Position numbers and translations under genes: made by a program. A stretch of 56,039 bases of DNA from Thermodesulfobacteriota bacterium (GTDB lineage Bacteria; Desulfobacterota; BSN033; UBA1163), in assembly GCA_035319625.1 (NCBI GenBank), contig DATHCH010000303.1, positions 1 through 56,039 of the forward strand, read 5' to 3'. The notes under the pieces are model-generated. The model did not search any database, was not told where the DNA came from, and worked only from the letters and a program-made list of their open reading frames with translations. Positions 560 to 5,463 of this stretch are shown here, in pieces; within the stretch, counting starts at the first letter, position 1; each line of letters begins with the position of its first letter.

Positions 560-655
560 ACCCCGTTAGAAATGATGCCCCGCTACTCTACAGAGGGGTT
601 ACATTTCGGATAATTCAAGCTAGGGTTAATACCCCGCTGGAATTTCTAACGGGGT
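560..655. repeat. perfect 14-bp inverted repeat (ACCCCGTTAGAAAT / ATTTCTAACGGGGT) enclosing a 68-nt structured core
   Basis: Arms at 560-573 and 642-655. The interior has an internal direct repeat CCCCGCT (577-583, 632-638) and short CCCC/GGGG stems. It sits in the gap downstream of the ATP-grasp-like gene. Confidence 0.5.
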
Positions 656-688
656 TCACTTTGGTTACCTGGAGAGGAAACGGCACGG

Positions 689-1600
689 TTACTCTTCGAA
701 GCAGGCTTTTGGCAGGCTAGAGAGATCTAATCCATCATAAAACCTTTCTATCTTTGTAGAGAGTTCCTTGATCGCTCTTAAAAGACGCTCAGGAATGAAG
801 ACCGTTGCCCTGGCCACCTCTTCTTCATATAAGTTGTGTCTCAGGTATTGAGGTTCTTTATCGCCAAACCATATCTCAGCTTCCCACGATTTTTGATTGA
901 ATAACTCAGTTCTGAAATGTCTCTCGTTCAGGCGAAACGCATTCCCAGGAGAGATAAAGGTTAGTATCCCGTGATTGGACGTAATGTTTGGTGAAAGGTT
1001 GGCATACATGCAAATAAACTCTCTCCCAAAAGCAACTGAGCGGATCGATAGACTGTATCCATCCATCTTGCTTTCGATATATTCTTGGAGGAGATAGTGA
1101 TTTAATGTGAGATTTAATTTGCACAAAGGTGACGGTTCAGAGATTACCTCCAAATCCCTTCCACCCCTTCCAACCCGACGTTTCAAAACCGCTTTCTTCT
1201 TTCGCTCAATAAATCGGTCAACTTCCACCCGGTCTTCGGTGTCGAGGACTATCGTCTCAGGCATAGGCGCGATGGATTTGAGTAATTGGTATTGATTCCA
1301 TTTATCCTCAAGCCTCAGTCCGGGATGGAAGGTCTTTGGAAGGGGTCCCATCCCGTCCATCCATATCTTGAAAGGTTTGAGGGCTTCAATAAAGGGAAGG
1401 GAGTGAAGGTAATCCTTGAATGCCTTTCCGTAAACCTTTCGCGAGACCCCTTCGATTCGTCTGAAAATGTCCGAGGGCTTTCCTAAATGGATGAGATGAG
1501 TAAGATGATATTCATGAGCCCCACCTGGGAGGCCCACATTCACCTCCACCAGATAGAGTTTTAGTTCGGAAGTTAGAAGAAAATCAATCCCGAGATACAT
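689..1600 (-). CDS. ATP-grasp-like protein with apparently permuted motif order
   Basis: 303 aa. The N-terminus GIDFLLTSELKLYLVEVNVGLPGG looks like the usual C-terminal ATP-grasp Mg/ATP motif. A RimK-like start follows (EDKWNQYQLL...KKAVLKRRVGRGGRDLEVI, then SIRSVAFGREFICMYA...SNHG). GAGG RBS; possible TTGGAG-N18-TATAAT promoter at 1654-1683. Confidence 0.6.
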   Translation of the reverse strand: MYLGIDFLLTSELKLYLVEVNVGLPGGAHEYHLTHLIHLGKPSDIFRRIEGVSRKVYGKAFKDYLHSLPFIEALKPFKIWMDGMGPLPKTFHPGLRLEDKWNQYQLLKSIAPMPETIVLDTEDRVEVDRFIERKKKAVLKRRVGRGGRDLEVISEPSPLCKLNLTLNHYLLQEYIESKMDGYSLSIRSVAFGREFICMYANLSPNITSNHGILTFISPGNAFRLNERHFRTELFNQKSWEAEIWFGDKEPQYLRHNLYEEEVARATVFIPERLLRAIKELSTKIERFYDGLDLSSLPKACFEE

Positions 1601-1787
1601 ACCTCAATCCGAAAGTGGCAAGTAAGGAGTAGAAAGTGGAAAGTAACTAAACCATTATATACCGCTCACATGCCATACTCCAATGCTTGACGCATGACCC
1701 CAGGAATCGTTCGGTCATTACAAAAAAACAGATCATCACTCGTGCGACCTGTTCCTTTTTCCCTCGGATGCGTACGGTCACTCAATA

Positions 1788-1817
1788 GGGGCTCCCTCCC
1801 TTCTTGGGAAGGAGCCC
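1788..1817 (-). terminator. GC-rich stem-loop after the rSAM gene and short ORF
   Basis: Minus strand reads GGGCTCCTTCCC-AAGAA-GGGAGGGAGCCCC. The following U-tract is weak (TATTGAG). Confidence 0.4.
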
Positions 1818-1827
1818 GATCGGTAGC

Positions 1828-1890
1828 TTAGCAAGATGCTTTGCATTTGCAAAGGCTGGAGAATTTCTTGGCCACCTTCTTGATGGTCAT
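1828..1890 (-). CDS. candidate 20-aa Cys-rich peptide MTIKKVAKKFSSLCKCKASC (possible RiPP precursor)
   Basis: Below the ORF-track size cutoff. The ATG lies 1 nt after the rSAM TGA stop. A GGAGGTGA SD is formed by the last rSAM codons (GGA GGT GAA TGA) with 7-nt spacing, and a GC hairpin follows the peptide stop. Caveat: the TGCAAATGCAAAG stretch is itself a small palindrome. Confidence 0.35.
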   Translation of the reverse strand: MTIKKVAKKFSSLCKCKASC

Positions 1891-1891
1891 A

Positions 1892-3058
1892 TCATTCACC
1901 TCCTTTCAAAACACCCCTTGCATAACATTGAAAAAGATCGGGTTGCAATAAATCACCTTGGATTTTTGCCCGATAGCGACATCCGCCCCGACACTCTTCC
2001 ATCACAGGGCATTTGCAGGTGAGGTCCTTCAGGGCAATTCGACGAATTCGTGCCCAGCAAGTCCGCAGCCCTTCCTCAATCGATCCCACGGGTTCACCGC
2101 TAAAAAGTCCACACTTACAAATTGCTCCATTTGGAATTATAGCACAAAGATGAGCTCCGCAAGTAGAATTTTCTGCGGCACCGTGAAATCCTCCTCCAAA
2201 GCCATAACTGAGAAACCGGCCTGCCTGAGAGGCTGAAACCCAAAAATCCTGATTTGCTTTCAACCTCCCCTCTGCACACGGGACATCGACATTCCACTCC
2301 TCAATGTGTTTCGATTGAAGGAGGGAAGCAAGCTGGTCAAATTCAGATAAATTTCTACGATGAATCATCGTGGCCACAGAGACCCGAAGGTTAGCCTGTT
2401 GCAGATGGTCAATGGCCGCCATCGTTTTTTCGAAGGTGTCTTTCCCTCGAAGTAATTCATGACCCTCCTTCACTCCATCGAGACTGACCTGGACCTCGTG
2501 GACGCGGAGCTTTTGGGCGACTTCTTTGGTAATCAACGTGCCATTGGAAAGAAGTACGGATCGAAATGCATGGTTTCGCAGTATGTCGTTGATCTCCCAA
2601 AAATGAGGATGGAGCAGCGGTTCCCCTCCAGAAATGAGTAGCCTCAATCCTTGGATCTCTTCAAATTCTTCCAAAACGCTTTGAATCTGTTTCTTAGTAA
2701 GATCCCGATGAGATCCCTCTCCGATATAACAGTGGCGGCATTGGAGATTGCATCGGTCTGTAATCTGGATCTCAAGATAACGGAGCGATGGGATCGGCGA
2801 GGGATTCAAAGGCATCTTCCTCTGAAGCGGAGCTTCTGAGAAGGCGATCAAATTTTCAGAAAGGCAAAATTGGATGAATTCTTCGTCCTCCTTTCGGACA
2901 GGAGGGTTCTCACCCCGGCAGATCTTGAGCAGAAATTGATAGGCATCCGCATTGAGTTCGTAAAGTTCATCTTTTTCGATATCGTAGAGGTAGGGTTCTT
3001 CGAGGTTTTTTAGAACGGAGTGAGGGGTCAGAATGACGTATTTATTCTCGGAGGGCAT
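1892..3058 (-). CDS. radical SAM/SPASM-domain peptide-maturase-like enzyme with N-terminal PqqD/RRE-like domain
   Basis: 388 aa. CxxxCxxC cluster DRCNLQCRHCY. C-terminal auxiliary-cluster Cys pattern CGAHLCAIIPNGAICKCG...CKCPVMEECRGGCRYRA. N-terminal ~75 aa (LYDIEKDELYELNADAYQFLLKICRG) resembles PqqD-type recognition elements. Confidence 0.85.
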   Translation of the reverse strand: MPSENKYVILTPHSVLKNLEEPYLYDIEKDELYELNADAYQFLLKICRGENPPVRKEDEEFIQFCLSENLIAFSEAPLQRKMPLNPSPIPSLRYLEIQITDRCNLQCRHCYIGEGSHRDLTKKQIQSVLEEFEEIQGLRLLISGGEPLLHPHFWEINDILRNHAFRSVLLSNGTLITKEVAQKLRVHEVQVSLDGVKEGHELLRGKDTFEKTMAAIDHLQQANLRVSVATMIHRRNLSEFDQLASLLQSKHIEEWNVDVPCAEGRLKANQDFWVSASQAGRFLSYGFGGGFHGAAENSTCGAHLCAIIPNGAICKCGLFSGEPVGSIEEGLRTCWARIRRIALKDLTCKCPVMEECRGGCRYRAKIQGDLLQPDLFQCYARGVLKGGE

Positions 3059-3206
3059 CGGAAATCTCTTTATGGGTAATGATCTTCTTTTCCAAAAGTC
3101 GTTTAAGGATTTTGTAAGCCCCGCATTCCAGGTCCTTTTCAGATTCTTTATAGAAGTTACAATGTTTGCAGATCAGATCGATCAGAGACTCTTTATCCAA
3201 TTTCAT
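3042..3206 (-). CDS. 54-aa CxxC-containing protein, first gene of the rSAM operon
   Basis: Below the track cutoff. MKLDKESLIDLICKHCNFYKESEKDLECGAYKILKRLLEKKIITHKEISDALRE. GAGGAG SD 6 nt upstream. Its 3' end overlaps the rSAM start by 17 nt, consistent with translational coupling. Confidence 0.5.
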   Translation of the reverse strand: MKLDKESLIDLICKHCNFYKESEKDLECGAYKILKRLLEKKIITHKEISDALRE

Positions 3207-3230
3207 CAAATCTCCTCATCCCCCACGCTT

Positions 3231-3268
3231 CTCTCCCCCTCAAGGTGGGAAGGGTTAGGTAAGGGGGA
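3231..3268. repeat. GC-rich palindromic element (CCCCCT...AGGGGG family)
   Basis: TCCCCCT-caaggtgggaagggttaggta-AGGGGGA, in the divergent promoter region between the rSAM operon and nifU. Confidence 0.5.
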
Positions 3269-3378
3269 AACAATTCTATTTTGACCGATTTTGTTAAATA
3301 GTAATGAATAATAGGAATTGAATCAAGCTATTTTTGCGCATGGGATTTCCATAAAAAGGTATCCTTGAATTAAAAAGG

Positions 3379-3408
3379 TTGACGGTGTAAAGGGATTGAA
3401 TTTATAAT
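3379..3408 (+). promoter_or_regulatory. putative sigma-70 promoter of nifUS
   Basis: TTGACG-N18-TATAAT, about 35 nt upstream of the nifU ATG. Confidence 0.45.
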
Positions 3409-3442
3409 AACTTATGGTTAATAAAAATACTGGGGGTTTCCT

Positions 3443-4285
3443 ATGTGGGATTATACAGAGAAGGTCAAAGATCATTTTCTGAATCCGAGAAATGTTGGAG
3501 AGATCGAAAATCCGGACGGGGAAGGTGAAGTTGGGTCGCTGGCCTGTGGGGATGCTCTGAGACTCACCTTCAAATTGGATGAGAAGAAACGGATCAAAGA
3601 TGTGAAGTTCAAGACCTTTGGCTGTGCCAGTGCCATTGCTTCCTCTTCTGCCTTGACCGAGATCATCAAGGGGAAGACGCTTGATGAAGCAGCGAAGATC
3701 ACCAATCAGGATATTGCTAATTATCTGGGAGGACTTCCCGAAGAAAAGATGCACTGCTCGGTGATGGGAAGAGAAGCTCTCGATGCTGCGATCGCCAATT
3801 ATCGCGGACAGAAAGTAACGAAAGAAGATTTTGAGGTGATCTGCAATTGCTTCGGTGTGACGGACAGAGAAATTATCAAGGCCGTTCGTGAGAACAATCT
3901 CAAGACAGTGGAACAGGTGACCTATTACACCAAGGCCGGCGGAGGATGTGGCCAGTGCCATCCAAAGATCGAAGCCATCATCGAGAAAGTGAGAAAGGAG
4001 ATGGAGAAAGAGGCACCTCCTCCAAAGCCAGAGAAAAAGAAGTTGACGAACATTCAGAAAATCAAATTGATCGAAGAGACATTGGGAAGGGAGATCATCC
4101 CGGCTTTAAAAGCGGACGGTGGAGATTTAGATTTGATCGATATCGAGGGCAACAAGGTTTTGGTGGCATTGAGGGGAAAGTGTTCCTTCTGCCCCAGCTC
4201 TGAATTTACTTTGAAACAATATGTCGAATCGAAGTTAAGGGAATTTGTGAGCGACGATATTGAAGTAGAGGAGGTCAGGCCGTGA
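3443..4285 (+). CDS. nifU: NifU-type Fe-S cluster scaffold (IscU-like N domain, central 2Fe-2S domain, C-terminal Nfu domain)
   Basis: Scaffold cysteines in GSLACGDALRL, FKTFGCASAIASS and MHCSVM. Central CNCFGV...GGGCGQC. C-terminal CSFCPSS. Confidence 0.92.
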   Translation: MWDYTEKVKDHFLNPRNVGEIENPDGEGEVGSLACGDALRLTFKLDEKKRIKDVKFKTFGCASAIASSSALTEIIKGKTLDEAAKITNQDIANYLGGLPEEKMHCSVMGREALDAAIANYRGQKVTKEDFEVICNCFGVTDREIIKAVRENNLKTVEQVTYYTKAGGGCGQCHPKIEAIIEKVRKEMEKEAPPPKPEKKKLTNIQKIKLIEETLGREIIPALKADGGDLDLIDIEGNKVLVALRGKCSFCPSSEFTLKQYVESKLREFVSDDIEVEEVRP

Positions 4286-5463
4286 AGACCGTCTATGTGG
4301 ACAATAATGCAACGACAAAAGTAGCTCCAGAGGTGTTGGAGGTGATGCTCCCATATTTTTCCGAATATTATGGGAATCCATCGAGCATGCACTTCTTCGG
4401 AGGACAGGTTCAAAAGAAGGTGGATGAGGCGAGGGGGAAGGTGGCAGATTTTTTAGGAGCAGAGCCTTCGGAGGTTGTTTTCACCAGTTGTGGGACGGAA
4501 AGTGATAATGCGGCAATATTAGGGACACTCGATTCCTATACGGAAAGGCGGCACCTCATCTCCACCCGGGTGGAACATCCTGCCATTGGGAATGTGGCGA
4601 CCTATTTAGGCCGAAAGGGCTACCACATCACTGAACTTTCTGTGGATCGAGAGGGACGGTTAGATCTGGATGATTTGAGGGAGTCGCTTACCGATGAAAC
4701 GGCTCTGGTCACCATTATGTATGCCAATAATGAAACCGGAGTGATCTTCCCGATCGAAGAGATTGGTGAGATTGTCAAGGCGAGGGGAATTTCTTTTCAT
4801 AGCGATGCAGTCCAGGCAGCGGGGAAGATCCCTCTCAACATGAAAAAATCGAAGCTGGATATGCTTTCCATCTCCGGCCACAAACTCCATGCGCCCAAGG
4901 GGATTGGGGTTCTTTACATCCGAAAAGGAACGAAATTTTCTCCGTTCTTGATCGGTGGCCACCAGGAGAAAGGGAGAAGGGGAGGAACAGAGAACGTCCC
5001 TTACATCATCGGGCTTGGGAAGGCGTGCGAGCTGGCCAAAAAGCATCTCGATGAAGAGAACACAAGGGTCAAAGCCCTGAGGGATTATCTCGAGGCAAAG
5101 CTCTTGGAGAAGATTCCAAATACCTTAGTGAATGGGGATCGGGTTCACCGACTTCCCAACACCGTGAGCGTTAGTTTTGAATATGTCGAAGGAGAATCCA
5201 TTCTCCTTCTGCTTTCTGATCTCGGTATCTGCGCCTCTTCAGGCTCCGCCTGCACATCCGGTTCACTGGAACCTTCGCATGTCCTCAGGGCCATGGGTGT
5301 TCCTTTCACCGCTGCCCACGGGTCGATTCGTTTCAGCCTGTCCGTCTACAACACAAAAGAGGAGATGGATTATATCATCGAACATCTTCCGCCGATTATT
5401 CAGAGGTTGAGGGATATCTCACCTTTCTGGAAAGATTATCTCAAGTCCCAGGGGAAAGCATAA
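4282..5463 (+). CDS. nifS: cysteine desulfurase NifS
   Basis: PLP-lysine motif SISGHKLHAPKGIG and active-site loop SSGSACTSGSLEPSHVL. Start overlaps the nifU stop (GTGA). Confidence 0.93.
   Translation: MKTVYVDNNATTKVAPEVLEVMLPYFSEYYGNPSSMHFFGGQVQKKVDEARGKVADFLGAEPSEVVFTSCGTESDNAAILGTLDSYTERRHLISTRVEHPAIGNVATYLGRKGYHITELSVDREGRLDLDDLRESLTDETALVTIMYANNETGVIFPIEEIGEIVKARGISFHSDAVQAAGKIPLNMKKSKLDMLSISGHKLHAPKGIGVLYIRKGTKFSPFLIGGHQEKGRRGGTENVPYIIGLGKACELAKKHLDEENTRVKALRDYLEAKLLEKIPNTLVNGDRVHRLPNTVSVSFEYVEGESILLLLSDLGICASSGSACTSGSLEPSHVLRAMGVPFTAAHGSIRFSLSVYNTKEEMDYIIEHLPPIIQRLRDISPFWKDYLKSQGKA

Follow-up and report, generated by a model that had tools for sequence, protein, structure and literature searches.

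Introduction

Among the peptides that are made on the ribosome and modified after translation (RiPPs), several systems pair a short precursor gene with a radical S-adenosylmethionine (rSAM) enzyme carrying a SPASM domain. In the SCIFF/ranthipeptide systems (CteB, Tte1186), a small Cys-rich peptide (about 45 residues, six of them Cys), with an unusual degree of conservation among many anaerobes, forms a two-gene module with an rSAM-SPASM enzyme that also contains a peptide-recognition (RRE) domain, and no dedicated protease or exporter is present. SuiA/SuiB (streptide) and SkfA/SkfB also have a short precursor gene beside the enzyme: SuiB joins Lys to Trp, and SkfB, encoded in an operon with a protease and an exporter, forms a single Cys-to-Met thioether in a 26-residue product that is secreted and later cyclised. 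The PqqA/PqqE/PqqD system for pyrroloquinoline quinone (PQQ) and the MftA/MftC system for mycofactocin combine a very short, conserved precursor, its core at the C-terminus, with an rSAM/SPASM enzyme and a fused or free RRE, and yield an intracellular product. The Bacteroidetes grasp-with-SPASM loci (“branch 5” graspetides; TIGR04192/TIGR04193) comprise a small protein 5′ of the SPASM enzyme, short Cys-containing precursors and an ATP-grasp ligase (PMC8939145). Here we describe a candidate system of this kind on a 56,039-nucleotide stretch of DNA from a Thermodesulfobacteriota bacterium (assembly GCA_035319625.1, contig DATHCH010000303.1, positions 1 to 56,039; hereafter the window), built around a 20-codon open reading frame (ORF), pep20, and the rSAM/SPASM gene that precedes it.

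The pep20 ORF (1828..1890, minus strand; 20 codons plus stop) encodes MTIKKVAKKFSSLCKCKASC, a product read from the sequence, with conserved copies elsewhere and a Shine-Dalgarno element in front. In our view pep20 is probably translated into a precursor peptide that serves the neighbouring rSAM/SPASM maturase as its dedicated substrate, most likely as the leader-plus-core precursor of a SCIFF-like RiPP system. Purifying selection acts on pep20, the peptide gene is co-inherited with the rSAM gene, and the enzyme belongs to the fold class of RiPP maturases. ORFs of 63 nt are passed over by gene callers, and the annotation of the enzyme, “radical SAM/SPASM protein”, leaves it an orphan; once it is paired with pep20, an enzyme family without a partner becomes a two-gene system that can be tested directly. 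The system is filed under the rSAM/SPASM-modified ribosomal peptides; pep20 itself has no family model.

The pep20 gene and its conservation

Read on the minus strand, pep20 runs from an ATG at 1890-1888 to a TAA at 1830-1828. The rSAM gene in front of it ends in AAA GGA GGT GAA TGA, with its stop at 1894-1892, and a single base (1891) separates this stop from the pep20 ATG. The Shine-Dalgarno element GGAGGTGA (1896..1903, minus strand) lies within the last rSAM codons. An earlier note, made from the letters of this DNA alone, had described a 20-residue product with a Lys-rich N-terminus followed by a three-Cys C-terminal half, and every element of that description is found in the sequence. 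Its spacing of “exactly 7 nt” between the Shine-Dalgarno element and the start is a fair approximation, the 3′ end of the 8-mer lying 5 nt and the end of its GGAGG core 8 nt from the ATG. An in-frame GTG at 1899, which would give a 23-residue product, was rejected as the start codon, as the residues 5′ of the ATG are unconserved outside Syntrophia (the class of the window) and the Shine-Dalgarno element would touch the GTG. The peptide can be divided into a proposed leader of about residues 1-10, in which I3, K5, V6 and K8 are invariant, and a core, C14-K-C-K-A-S-C20. The peptide encoded in the window contains no Asp, Glu or Tyr and ends in Ser-Cys.

A bare 20-codon ORF is trivial by chance; its conservation is what exceeds chance, and it confirms that pep20 is a real gene for a three-cysteine peptide and not an RNA element. 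The earlier note had proposed to look downstream of orthologous rSAM genes, and when such loci were found via the enzyme alone (40-89% identity), 23 out of 25 carried an ORF ending in C-K-C-x-[A/G]-S-C-stop. These enzyme-anchored loci include Dissulfurispiraceae (Nitrospirota) and Thermoleophilia, as well as one locus with the ORF upstream of the rSAM gene. Two exceptions were recorded: at L022 the contig ends 48 nt past the enzyme gene, and at L017 (about 5160-5230) a decayed remnant, IQKVIRKFFGLCQRRPPC, without start codon and without CKC, stands beside an intact rSAM and ATP-grasp gene, in a genome that holds an intact pep20 on another contig.

A search with the pep20 codon pattern matched 90 stretches in contigs from one genome per species, where about 0.03 would be expected by chance according to our own estimate; reversed-pattern controls gave one match in 68 genomes (Syntrophia) and none in 151 (Nitrospirota). 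A set of 92 distinct copies, from Syntrophia, Nitrospirota, Nitrospinota, Chloroflexota, Thermoleophilia, Desulfomonile and Syntrophorhabdus (at least five phyla), was analysed. The search pattern did not specify the start codon, Ile3, Lys17, the length or the Shine-Dalgarno element. A start codon (ATG, GTG or TTG) lies exactly 20 codons 5′ of the stop in 92/92 copies, and Ile3 is invariant though three different codons are used for it. A Shine-Dalgarno-like 5-mer, at a modal spacing of 7 nt, precedes 92/92 copies, compared to 15% of random 20-nt windows. The 92 distinct DNA sequences encode 70 distinct peptides, their variation lying at third positions. The synonymous bias that the earlier note had asked about is present: entropy at codon positions 1, 2 and 3 is 0.48, 0.55 and 1.34, and the ratio of nonsynonymous to synonymous differences (pN/pS) is 0.23, with pS saturated at 0.85, so that substitutions are codon-preserving.

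The general motif is M-x-I-[KR]-K-V-x-[KR]...C-K-C-K-x-S-C, and its Cys-free N-terminal half is conserved as strongly as the Cys core. The only position that is acidic across copies is position 7, which is Glu in 6/92. The rSAM flanks that were fetched contained core variants (CKCKSSC, CKCKNSC) and, in some Nitrospirota, 19-residue forms. One 2.6-kb contig (Nitrospinota) carries two pep20 copies 1.9 kb apart. Scans of four pep20 variants against Pfam and NCBIfam, up to E 10, gave no match, and five copies looked up in a collection of 15 billion proteins were absent from it. A full-text literature search returned none of the pep20 core motifs, and nothing relevant on rSAM/RiPP work in the carrier taxa.

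The earlier note had itself raised the objection that the Cys codons might be an accident of an RNA or DNA structure. On such a reading the ORF would be fortuitous, and the sequence 3′ of the rSAM gene would be kept as a structural element (palindrome or terminator region). The palindrome inside the ORF does exist, CTTTGC-AAAT-GCAAAG covering codons 13-17 with −6.6 kcal/mol (z −1.85 compared to shuffles), and a strong hairpin follows the ORF. However, the inner three pairs of the palindrome are forced by the TGY-AAR-TGY-AAR codons, its outer three pairs are broken in 5-12 of 24 enzyme-anchored loci, and out of 500 shuffles 280 equalled its percentage of pairing and 103 its covariation. Since the outer pairs are broken and the compensatory changes looked for are no better than in shuffles, the Cys codons produce the palindrome and not the reverse. 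The start, stop and Shine-Dalgarno element kept in 92/92 copies, with variation at third positions, also speak against an accidental ORF, and the real hairpin lies outside the frame, in sequence unconserved between phyla. An accidental ORF is thus already contradicted, and we assign it a negligible probability.

This hairpin (1789..1817, minus strand) is GC-rich and has a 12-bp stem (1817-1806/1800-1789), a loop AAGAA and no U-run; it begins after ten bases from the end of the ORF, at the distance given in the earlier note. With −26.4 kcal/mol (z −4.66 compared to shuffles), it is conserved in 19 Syntrophia loci, four of its 12 pairs showing compensatory changes. Other phyla have different hairpins at this place, and a stable hairpin occurs 3′ of most of the 92 copies. 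It is probably an mRNA-stabilising or attenuating structure closing the rSAM-pep20 message. A second hairpin (1722..1758, minus strand; −14.1 kcal/mol, z −3.46), with an A-run on one side and a U-run on the other, resembles an intrinsic terminator placed between pep20 and the ATP-grasp gene, and similar ACAGGTC...GACCTGTTT hairpins are present in related loci. Both hairpins came from folding; a simple promoter and terminator scan of the minus strand from 600 to 3500 made no call.

Co-inheritance of pep20 and the rSAM gene

In 72 of the 92 pep20 loci, the same strand carries an rSAM orthologue no more than 4 kb away, and in six loci the pep20 gene precedes it. The Syntrophia genes are separated by 1 nt in 15 loci and overlap by 4-23 nt in another 15, whereas in Nitrospirota pep20 is located 15-186 nt from the rSAM gene and has its own Shine-Dalgarno element. 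The translational coupling claimed in the earlier note therefore holds for the window and for Syntrophia, but does not extend to Nitrospirota.

Among the 68 Syntrophia genomes, the rSAM gene (scored as present at E ≤ 1e-60) and pep20 occur in the same 35, and the other 33 have neither. This distribution is patchy within genera, two of which have 9 of 14 and 5 of 13 genomes positive. The Nitrospirota class (151 genomes) repeats the pattern: all of the 67 rSAM-positive genomes hold pep20 (67/67), one genome has pep20 alone and 83 have neither. These Nitrospirota counts derive from a widened pattern (68 genomes with pep20), as the stricter one, with Ala or Gly at position 18, finds 36/151 and misses CKCKSSC and CKCKNSC. 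The pair is adjacent in 42 of the 67 genomes, on other contigs or 24-676 kb apart in 24, and at a contig end in one. Five genomes first seen with an “orphan” pep20 each have exactly one rSAM orthologue. Additional pep20 copies without additional enzyme copies were found (for example, three in G047 and two each in G048 and G014), and extra peptide copies without extra enzyme are typical of precursor genes. Within a partly overlapping set of 32 unlinked copies, 12 are still found before the TPR-IspE-Prs-L25 genes, where linked copies lie; in those 12 genomes the enzyme gene has moved and pep20 has stayed as its own unit. Because the two genes are co-inherited without being linked, and because this is repeated in two phyla, there is strong evidence that they need each other. 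No peptidase or transporter recurs within 4 kb of the 92 pep20 loci.

Several features of these loci may be added. The Nitrospirota loci (e.g., L081 327-4826, L115 950-3580) show pep20 just 5′ of the gene for a secreted TPR protein, with IspE, Prs and ribosomal protein L25 next in line and glycogen phosphorylase upstream of the rSAM gene; the TPR repeats were confirmed by Pfam, and the names IspE, Prs, L25 and glycogen phosphorylase were read by eye. The TPR-IspE-Prs-L25 group is taken to be a housekeeping cluster unrelated to pep20. A 1354-bp contig labelled Nanoarchaeota (L015) carries pep20 and an rSAM 74% identical to the Syntrophia enzyme, and is most likely a mis-binned bacterial contig and not an archaeal occurrence. 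Broken cassette genes were seen in relatives: an rSAM gene as two overlapping frames (G058:C5:304354-305518), a second cassette copy with in-frame stops (G008:C81), and an ATP-grasp gene in three pieces with stops (G011:C26:53847-54757). These could be decay or assembly errors.

The rSAM/SPASM enzyme

The enzyme gene (1892..3058, minus strand) encodes 388 residues with a Pfam Radical_SAM match (PF04055, E 6.5e-24). In the NCBIfam scan it fell far below every curated cut-off (WgkB, ScmE, NirJ, MftC, PqqE and others), and its best sequence match in the PDB is SkfB (E 9e-25). The CX3CX2C motif (C103, C107, C110) is invariant in 37 orthologues, as are seven C-terminal Cys (C300, C316, C348, C350, C356, C360 and C378) in SPASM-like spacings (G311-x4-C316 and C-x-C-x5-C-x3-C). 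A Pfam scan of the C-terminal 152 residues, to E 10, gave no hit, the SPASM model included. The N-terminal domain is acidic, E20 and D30 being invariant and E31 and E34 nearly so in the same orthologues.

The AlphaFold model of the enzyme (predicted local distance difference test, pLDDT, 87) has N-terminal strands at 7-34 and helices at 37-47 and 56-67, which form an RRE-like domain of about residues 7-85. Compared to SuiB it gave Z 26.4 over residues 7-384, with 352-360 residues aligned at a root-mean-square deviation of 3.8-4.0 Å. The first aligned positions are residue 7-8 of the model and residue 1-2 of the SuiB chain, and the N-terminal stretch of SuiB covered in this way is one we take to be its RRE, the domain that binds the leader. 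The match to SkfB reached Z 26.1, followed by anSME (Z 23) and CteB (Z 22); anSME, CteB, ChlB and PqqE match in the core and SPASM part, and the alignments with the SPASM enzymes SuiB, anSME and CteB extend to residues 383-386. The RRE assignment is one at fold level only, and Pfam found no PqqD match in the enzyme. At the level of the predicted structure, the enzyme has the architecture of a RiPP maturase, with a leader-binding domain and a SPASM domain. The features generally looked for in RRE-rSAM/SPASM RiPP systems were found at this locus: a radical SAM core, SPASM, an RRE (at fold level) and a co-travelling short precursor gene. We infer that the acidic face of the RRE fits the invariant Lys of the N-terminal half of pep20.

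The presence of this domain also bears on whether pep20 could be a real peptide that is not modified, serving as a partner of the rSAM enzyme or as a free thiol peptide (a Cys-ligand or sulfur donor to a cluster, or a metal-binding or chaperone peptide used only in connection with what the enzyme makes). The CxCxxxC arrangement could plausibly ligate a metal or an Fe-S cluster, the window has nifU and nifS in divergent orientation upstream, and some unlinked pep20 copies are near P-type ATPases or CopA-like ORFs. Two Nitrospirota genomes have a pep20 paralogue with the core A-C-K-C-H-G-S-C directly 3′ of a P1B heavy-metal ATPase (L103 1764-1826, minus strand; L134 2383-2445, plus strand); the genomes with this paralogue keep the canonical pep20 beside the rSAM gene. 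Relatives of the cassette protein p55, described below, follow a CutA-like gene (named by eye) in three Nitrospirota genomes. This metal context is nevertheless a minority and inconsistent, amounting to 6/32 unlinked loci near a P-type ATPase plus the two paralogues, with the remainder heterogeneous apart from the 12 copies at the ancestral spot, and the commonest neighbour of pep20 is the TPR-IspE-Prs-L25 cluster. A role in metal homeostasis, examined on the 32 unlinked copies, was kept as a weak lead only. Moreover, the enzyme has a peptide-recognition domain, as does SuiB, which binds the leader of its substrate, and the equal conservation of the Cys-free N-terminal half and the Cys core is more in keeping with a recognition leader than with a bare ligand peptide. 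An unmodified partner or thiol peptide is thus an unlikely account of pep20, and a substrate of the rSAM enzyme remains the preferred one.

p55 and the ATP-grasp ligase

Two further genes complete the cassette in Syntrophia. The first, p55 (3042..3209, minus strand), overlaps the rSAM start by 17 nt and encodes 54/55 residues, among them the motif CxxC-x-F-YKE...EC-G-A. The 35/68 Syntrophia genomes that have both the rSAM gene and pep20 are exactly those that carry it. The CxxC...ECG motif of p55 defines a broader family. Relatives of p55, some with a doubled repeat, lie beside the rSAM gene in Chloroflexota, Nitrospinota and other lineages, and p55 is absent beside the rSAM gene in Nitrospirota. 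A p55 profile search found it in 3/5 Nitrospirota genomes, as a double-repeat form next to a CutA-like gene and not next to the rSAM gene. These double-repeat proteins have 105-129 residues (L175 1306-1695, minus strand; L176 1264-1599, minus strand; L177 1477-1794, plus strand) and are encoded directly 3′ of the CutA-like gene, which was identified by eye. In two of the three genomes a membrane protein with a GHCxxMCGP motif adjoins them. Two Nitrospinota loci (among L141, L142 and L118) have a second rSAM-like ORF of about 463 residues 5′ of pep20, and then a double-repeat p55 and the orthologous rSAM gene.

The distribution of p55 invites the question whether p55 is the real substrate of the rSAM enzyme, with pep20 serving otherwise, for example as a substrate for the ATP-grasp alone. 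In favour of this, the p55 frame overlaps the beginning of the rSAM gene, and the protein is rich in Asp, Glu and Lys, has three Cys that are conserved, and occurs in exactly the same 35 Syntrophia genomes as the enzyme. On the other hand, it is missing beside the Nitrospirota rSAM gene, and its profile found none in 2/5 Nitrospirota genomes that carry rSAM and pep20, whereas pep20 accompanies the rSAM gene in 67/67. A small protein just 5′ of a SPASM enzyme also occupies the position of the PqqD-like helper proposed for the Bacteroidetes grasp-with-SPASM loci (PMC8939145). We therefore judge it quite improbable that p55 takes the place of pep20 as substrate, and p55 would rather be an auxiliary component, a frequent helper of the rSAM enzyme.

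The second gene (689..1600, minus strand) encodes an ATP-grasp ligase of 303 residues, in which the Pfam ATP-grasp_3 match (E 7.5e-8) covers residues 98-201 only. Its model (pLDDT 81.6) aligns from residue 1 with 3k1t (Z 10.7) and with glutathionylspermidine synthetase (2io7, Z 9.4), and the matches from residue 1, with Z in the range 8.4-10.7, also include eukaryotic-type glutathione synthetases and YgiC, while with RimK, LysX and Ddl of the classical kind the alignment does not begin before about residue 60-90. The modelled fold is that of a circularly permuted ATP-grasp of the glutathione-synthetase/glutathionylspermidine-synthetase type. The gene is present in 33/35 cassette-positive Syntrophia genomes and in one genome without the other cassette genes, and it was not found beside the rSAM gene among the loci examined in other phyla. 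It would therefore be a lineage-specific tailoring enzyme restricted to Syntrophia. If its target is pep20, this must be the carboxylate of the C-terminal Cys, because the peptide has no Asp or Glu; glutathione synthetase uses the same kind of site on γ-Glu-Cys. As p55 is absent beside the Nitrospirota rSAM gene and the ATP-grasp was not found in other phyla, the universal module consists of the rSAM gene and pep20.

Proposed maturation and function

The message comprising the rSAM gene and pep20 would be translated with pep20 starting, in the window, by coupling, given its Shine-Dalgarno element in the last rSAM codons and an ATG 1 nt past the stop. The Lys-rich N-terminal half (M-x-I-K/R-K-V-x-K) could act as a short leader that docks as a strand on the acidic RRE domain, so as to bring the C-K-C-K-x-S-C core into the active site. 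There, the 5′-deoxyadenosyl radical and two auxiliary Fe-S clusters would carry out Cys-centred chemistry. The most likely outcome is at least one thioether cross-link, of the sactionine or ranthionine type; a thioether from at least one of the three Cys is a default guess by analogy with the rSAM/SPASM enzyme class. The product probably stays in the cell, because the module has neither protease nor exporter, and may be nearer to SCIFF or to a peptide-derived cofactor than to a secreted antibiotic. In Syntrophia, the permuted ATP-grasp probably ligates an amine to the C-terminal Cys, the only carboxylate of pep20, and the 55-residue CxxC protein p55 probably assists the rSAM enzyme.

The leader-plus-core precursor proposed in the earlier note is supported, in that both comparisons it had suggested favour a peptide; modification of that peptide by the rSAM enzyme itself is what we infer, and so are its chemistry and the roles of p55 and the ATP-grasp. 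Some points weigh against pep20 as the substrate of this enzyme. A proposed leader of about 10-13 residues is short for RRE recognition, and a core of seven residues is small for nested rings like those of classical sactipeptides. In Syntrophia, p55 matches the rSAM gene equally perfectly and could be a second or the true substrate there. In the 92-copy set, any residue that the search pattern specified is bound to be invariant, and the enzyme-anchored sets alone are unbiased. Kinship within a class inflates the independence of the co-occurrences, a concern lessened by the second phylum and the unlinked cases.

The conservation of pep20 from Syntrophia to Nitrospirota, Chloroflexota and Thermoleophilia, together with its strict co-inheritance and the lack of export and cleavage genes, suggests a cellular and not an antibiotic role, as for SCIFF, PQQ and mycofactocin. 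A more far-reaching proposal, which we put forward tentatively and consider doubtful, is that pep20 gives rise to a small intracellular sulfur-rich product, either a peptide-derived cofactor or a metal-handling thiol peptide, made by a minimal two-gene module common to anaerobes of at least five phyla through new radical chemistry on a seven-residue core, with an ATP-grasp extension at the C-terminal Cys in Syntrophia. The carriers, syntrophs and anaerobes that cycle sulfur or metals, are difficult to work with; the peptide-enzyme pair can be reconstituted in E. coli.

Comparison with known systems

The SCIFF/ranthipeptide systems share with the pep20 locus the two-gene module of a small Cys-rich peptide and an RRE-rSAM-SPASM enzyme, the unusual conservation of the peptide across many anaerobes and the lack of a dedicated protease and exporter, and CteB is a strong fold match to the window enzyme (Z 22). 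They differ in the peptide, pep20 being 20 residues long, or 19 in some Nitrospirota, with three Cys, compared to about 45 residues and six Cys, and in the enzyme, which scores 27.5 bits against TIGR03974 (rSAM_six_Cys, cut-off 425). The pep20 system is also found in other phyla, and its Syntrophia version adds an ATP-grasp and a CxxC protein.

SuiB and SkfB are the best structural matches to the whole enzyme, RRE included, although they share only 15-21% sequence identity with it. The Lys-to-Trp bond of SuiB has no counterpart in pep20, which lacks a conserved aromatic residue, and SkfB differs in its single Cys-to-Met thioether, its secreted and later cyclised product and its operon with protease and exporter. 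PQQ and mycofactocin resemble the pep20 system in the very short conserved precursor with its C-terminal core, in the rSAM/SPASM enzyme with RRE and in the intracellular location of their products. However, the window enzyme scores 58.3 bits against TIGR02109 (PqqE, cut-off 381) and 92.3 bits against TIGR03962 (MftC, cut-off 265), pep20 lacks both the Glu...Tyr pair found in PqqA and the Val-Tyr with which MftA ends, and the pep20 module has no downstream cofactor-processing genes.

The Bacteroidetes grasp-with-SPASM loci have the same layout as the window cassette. Nevertheless, TIGR04193 gave no hit on the window enzyme and TIGR04192 no match in the genome, the window ATP-grasp is of the permuted glutathione-synthetase type and is dispensable outside Syntrophia, and pep20, unlike a graspetide, offers neither Asp nor Glu from which a side-chain lactone or lactam could form, its C-terminus being the sole carboxylate. 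The pep20 system is therefore nearest in logic to SCIFF and nearest in layout to the grasp-with-SPASM loci, and is a member of neither.

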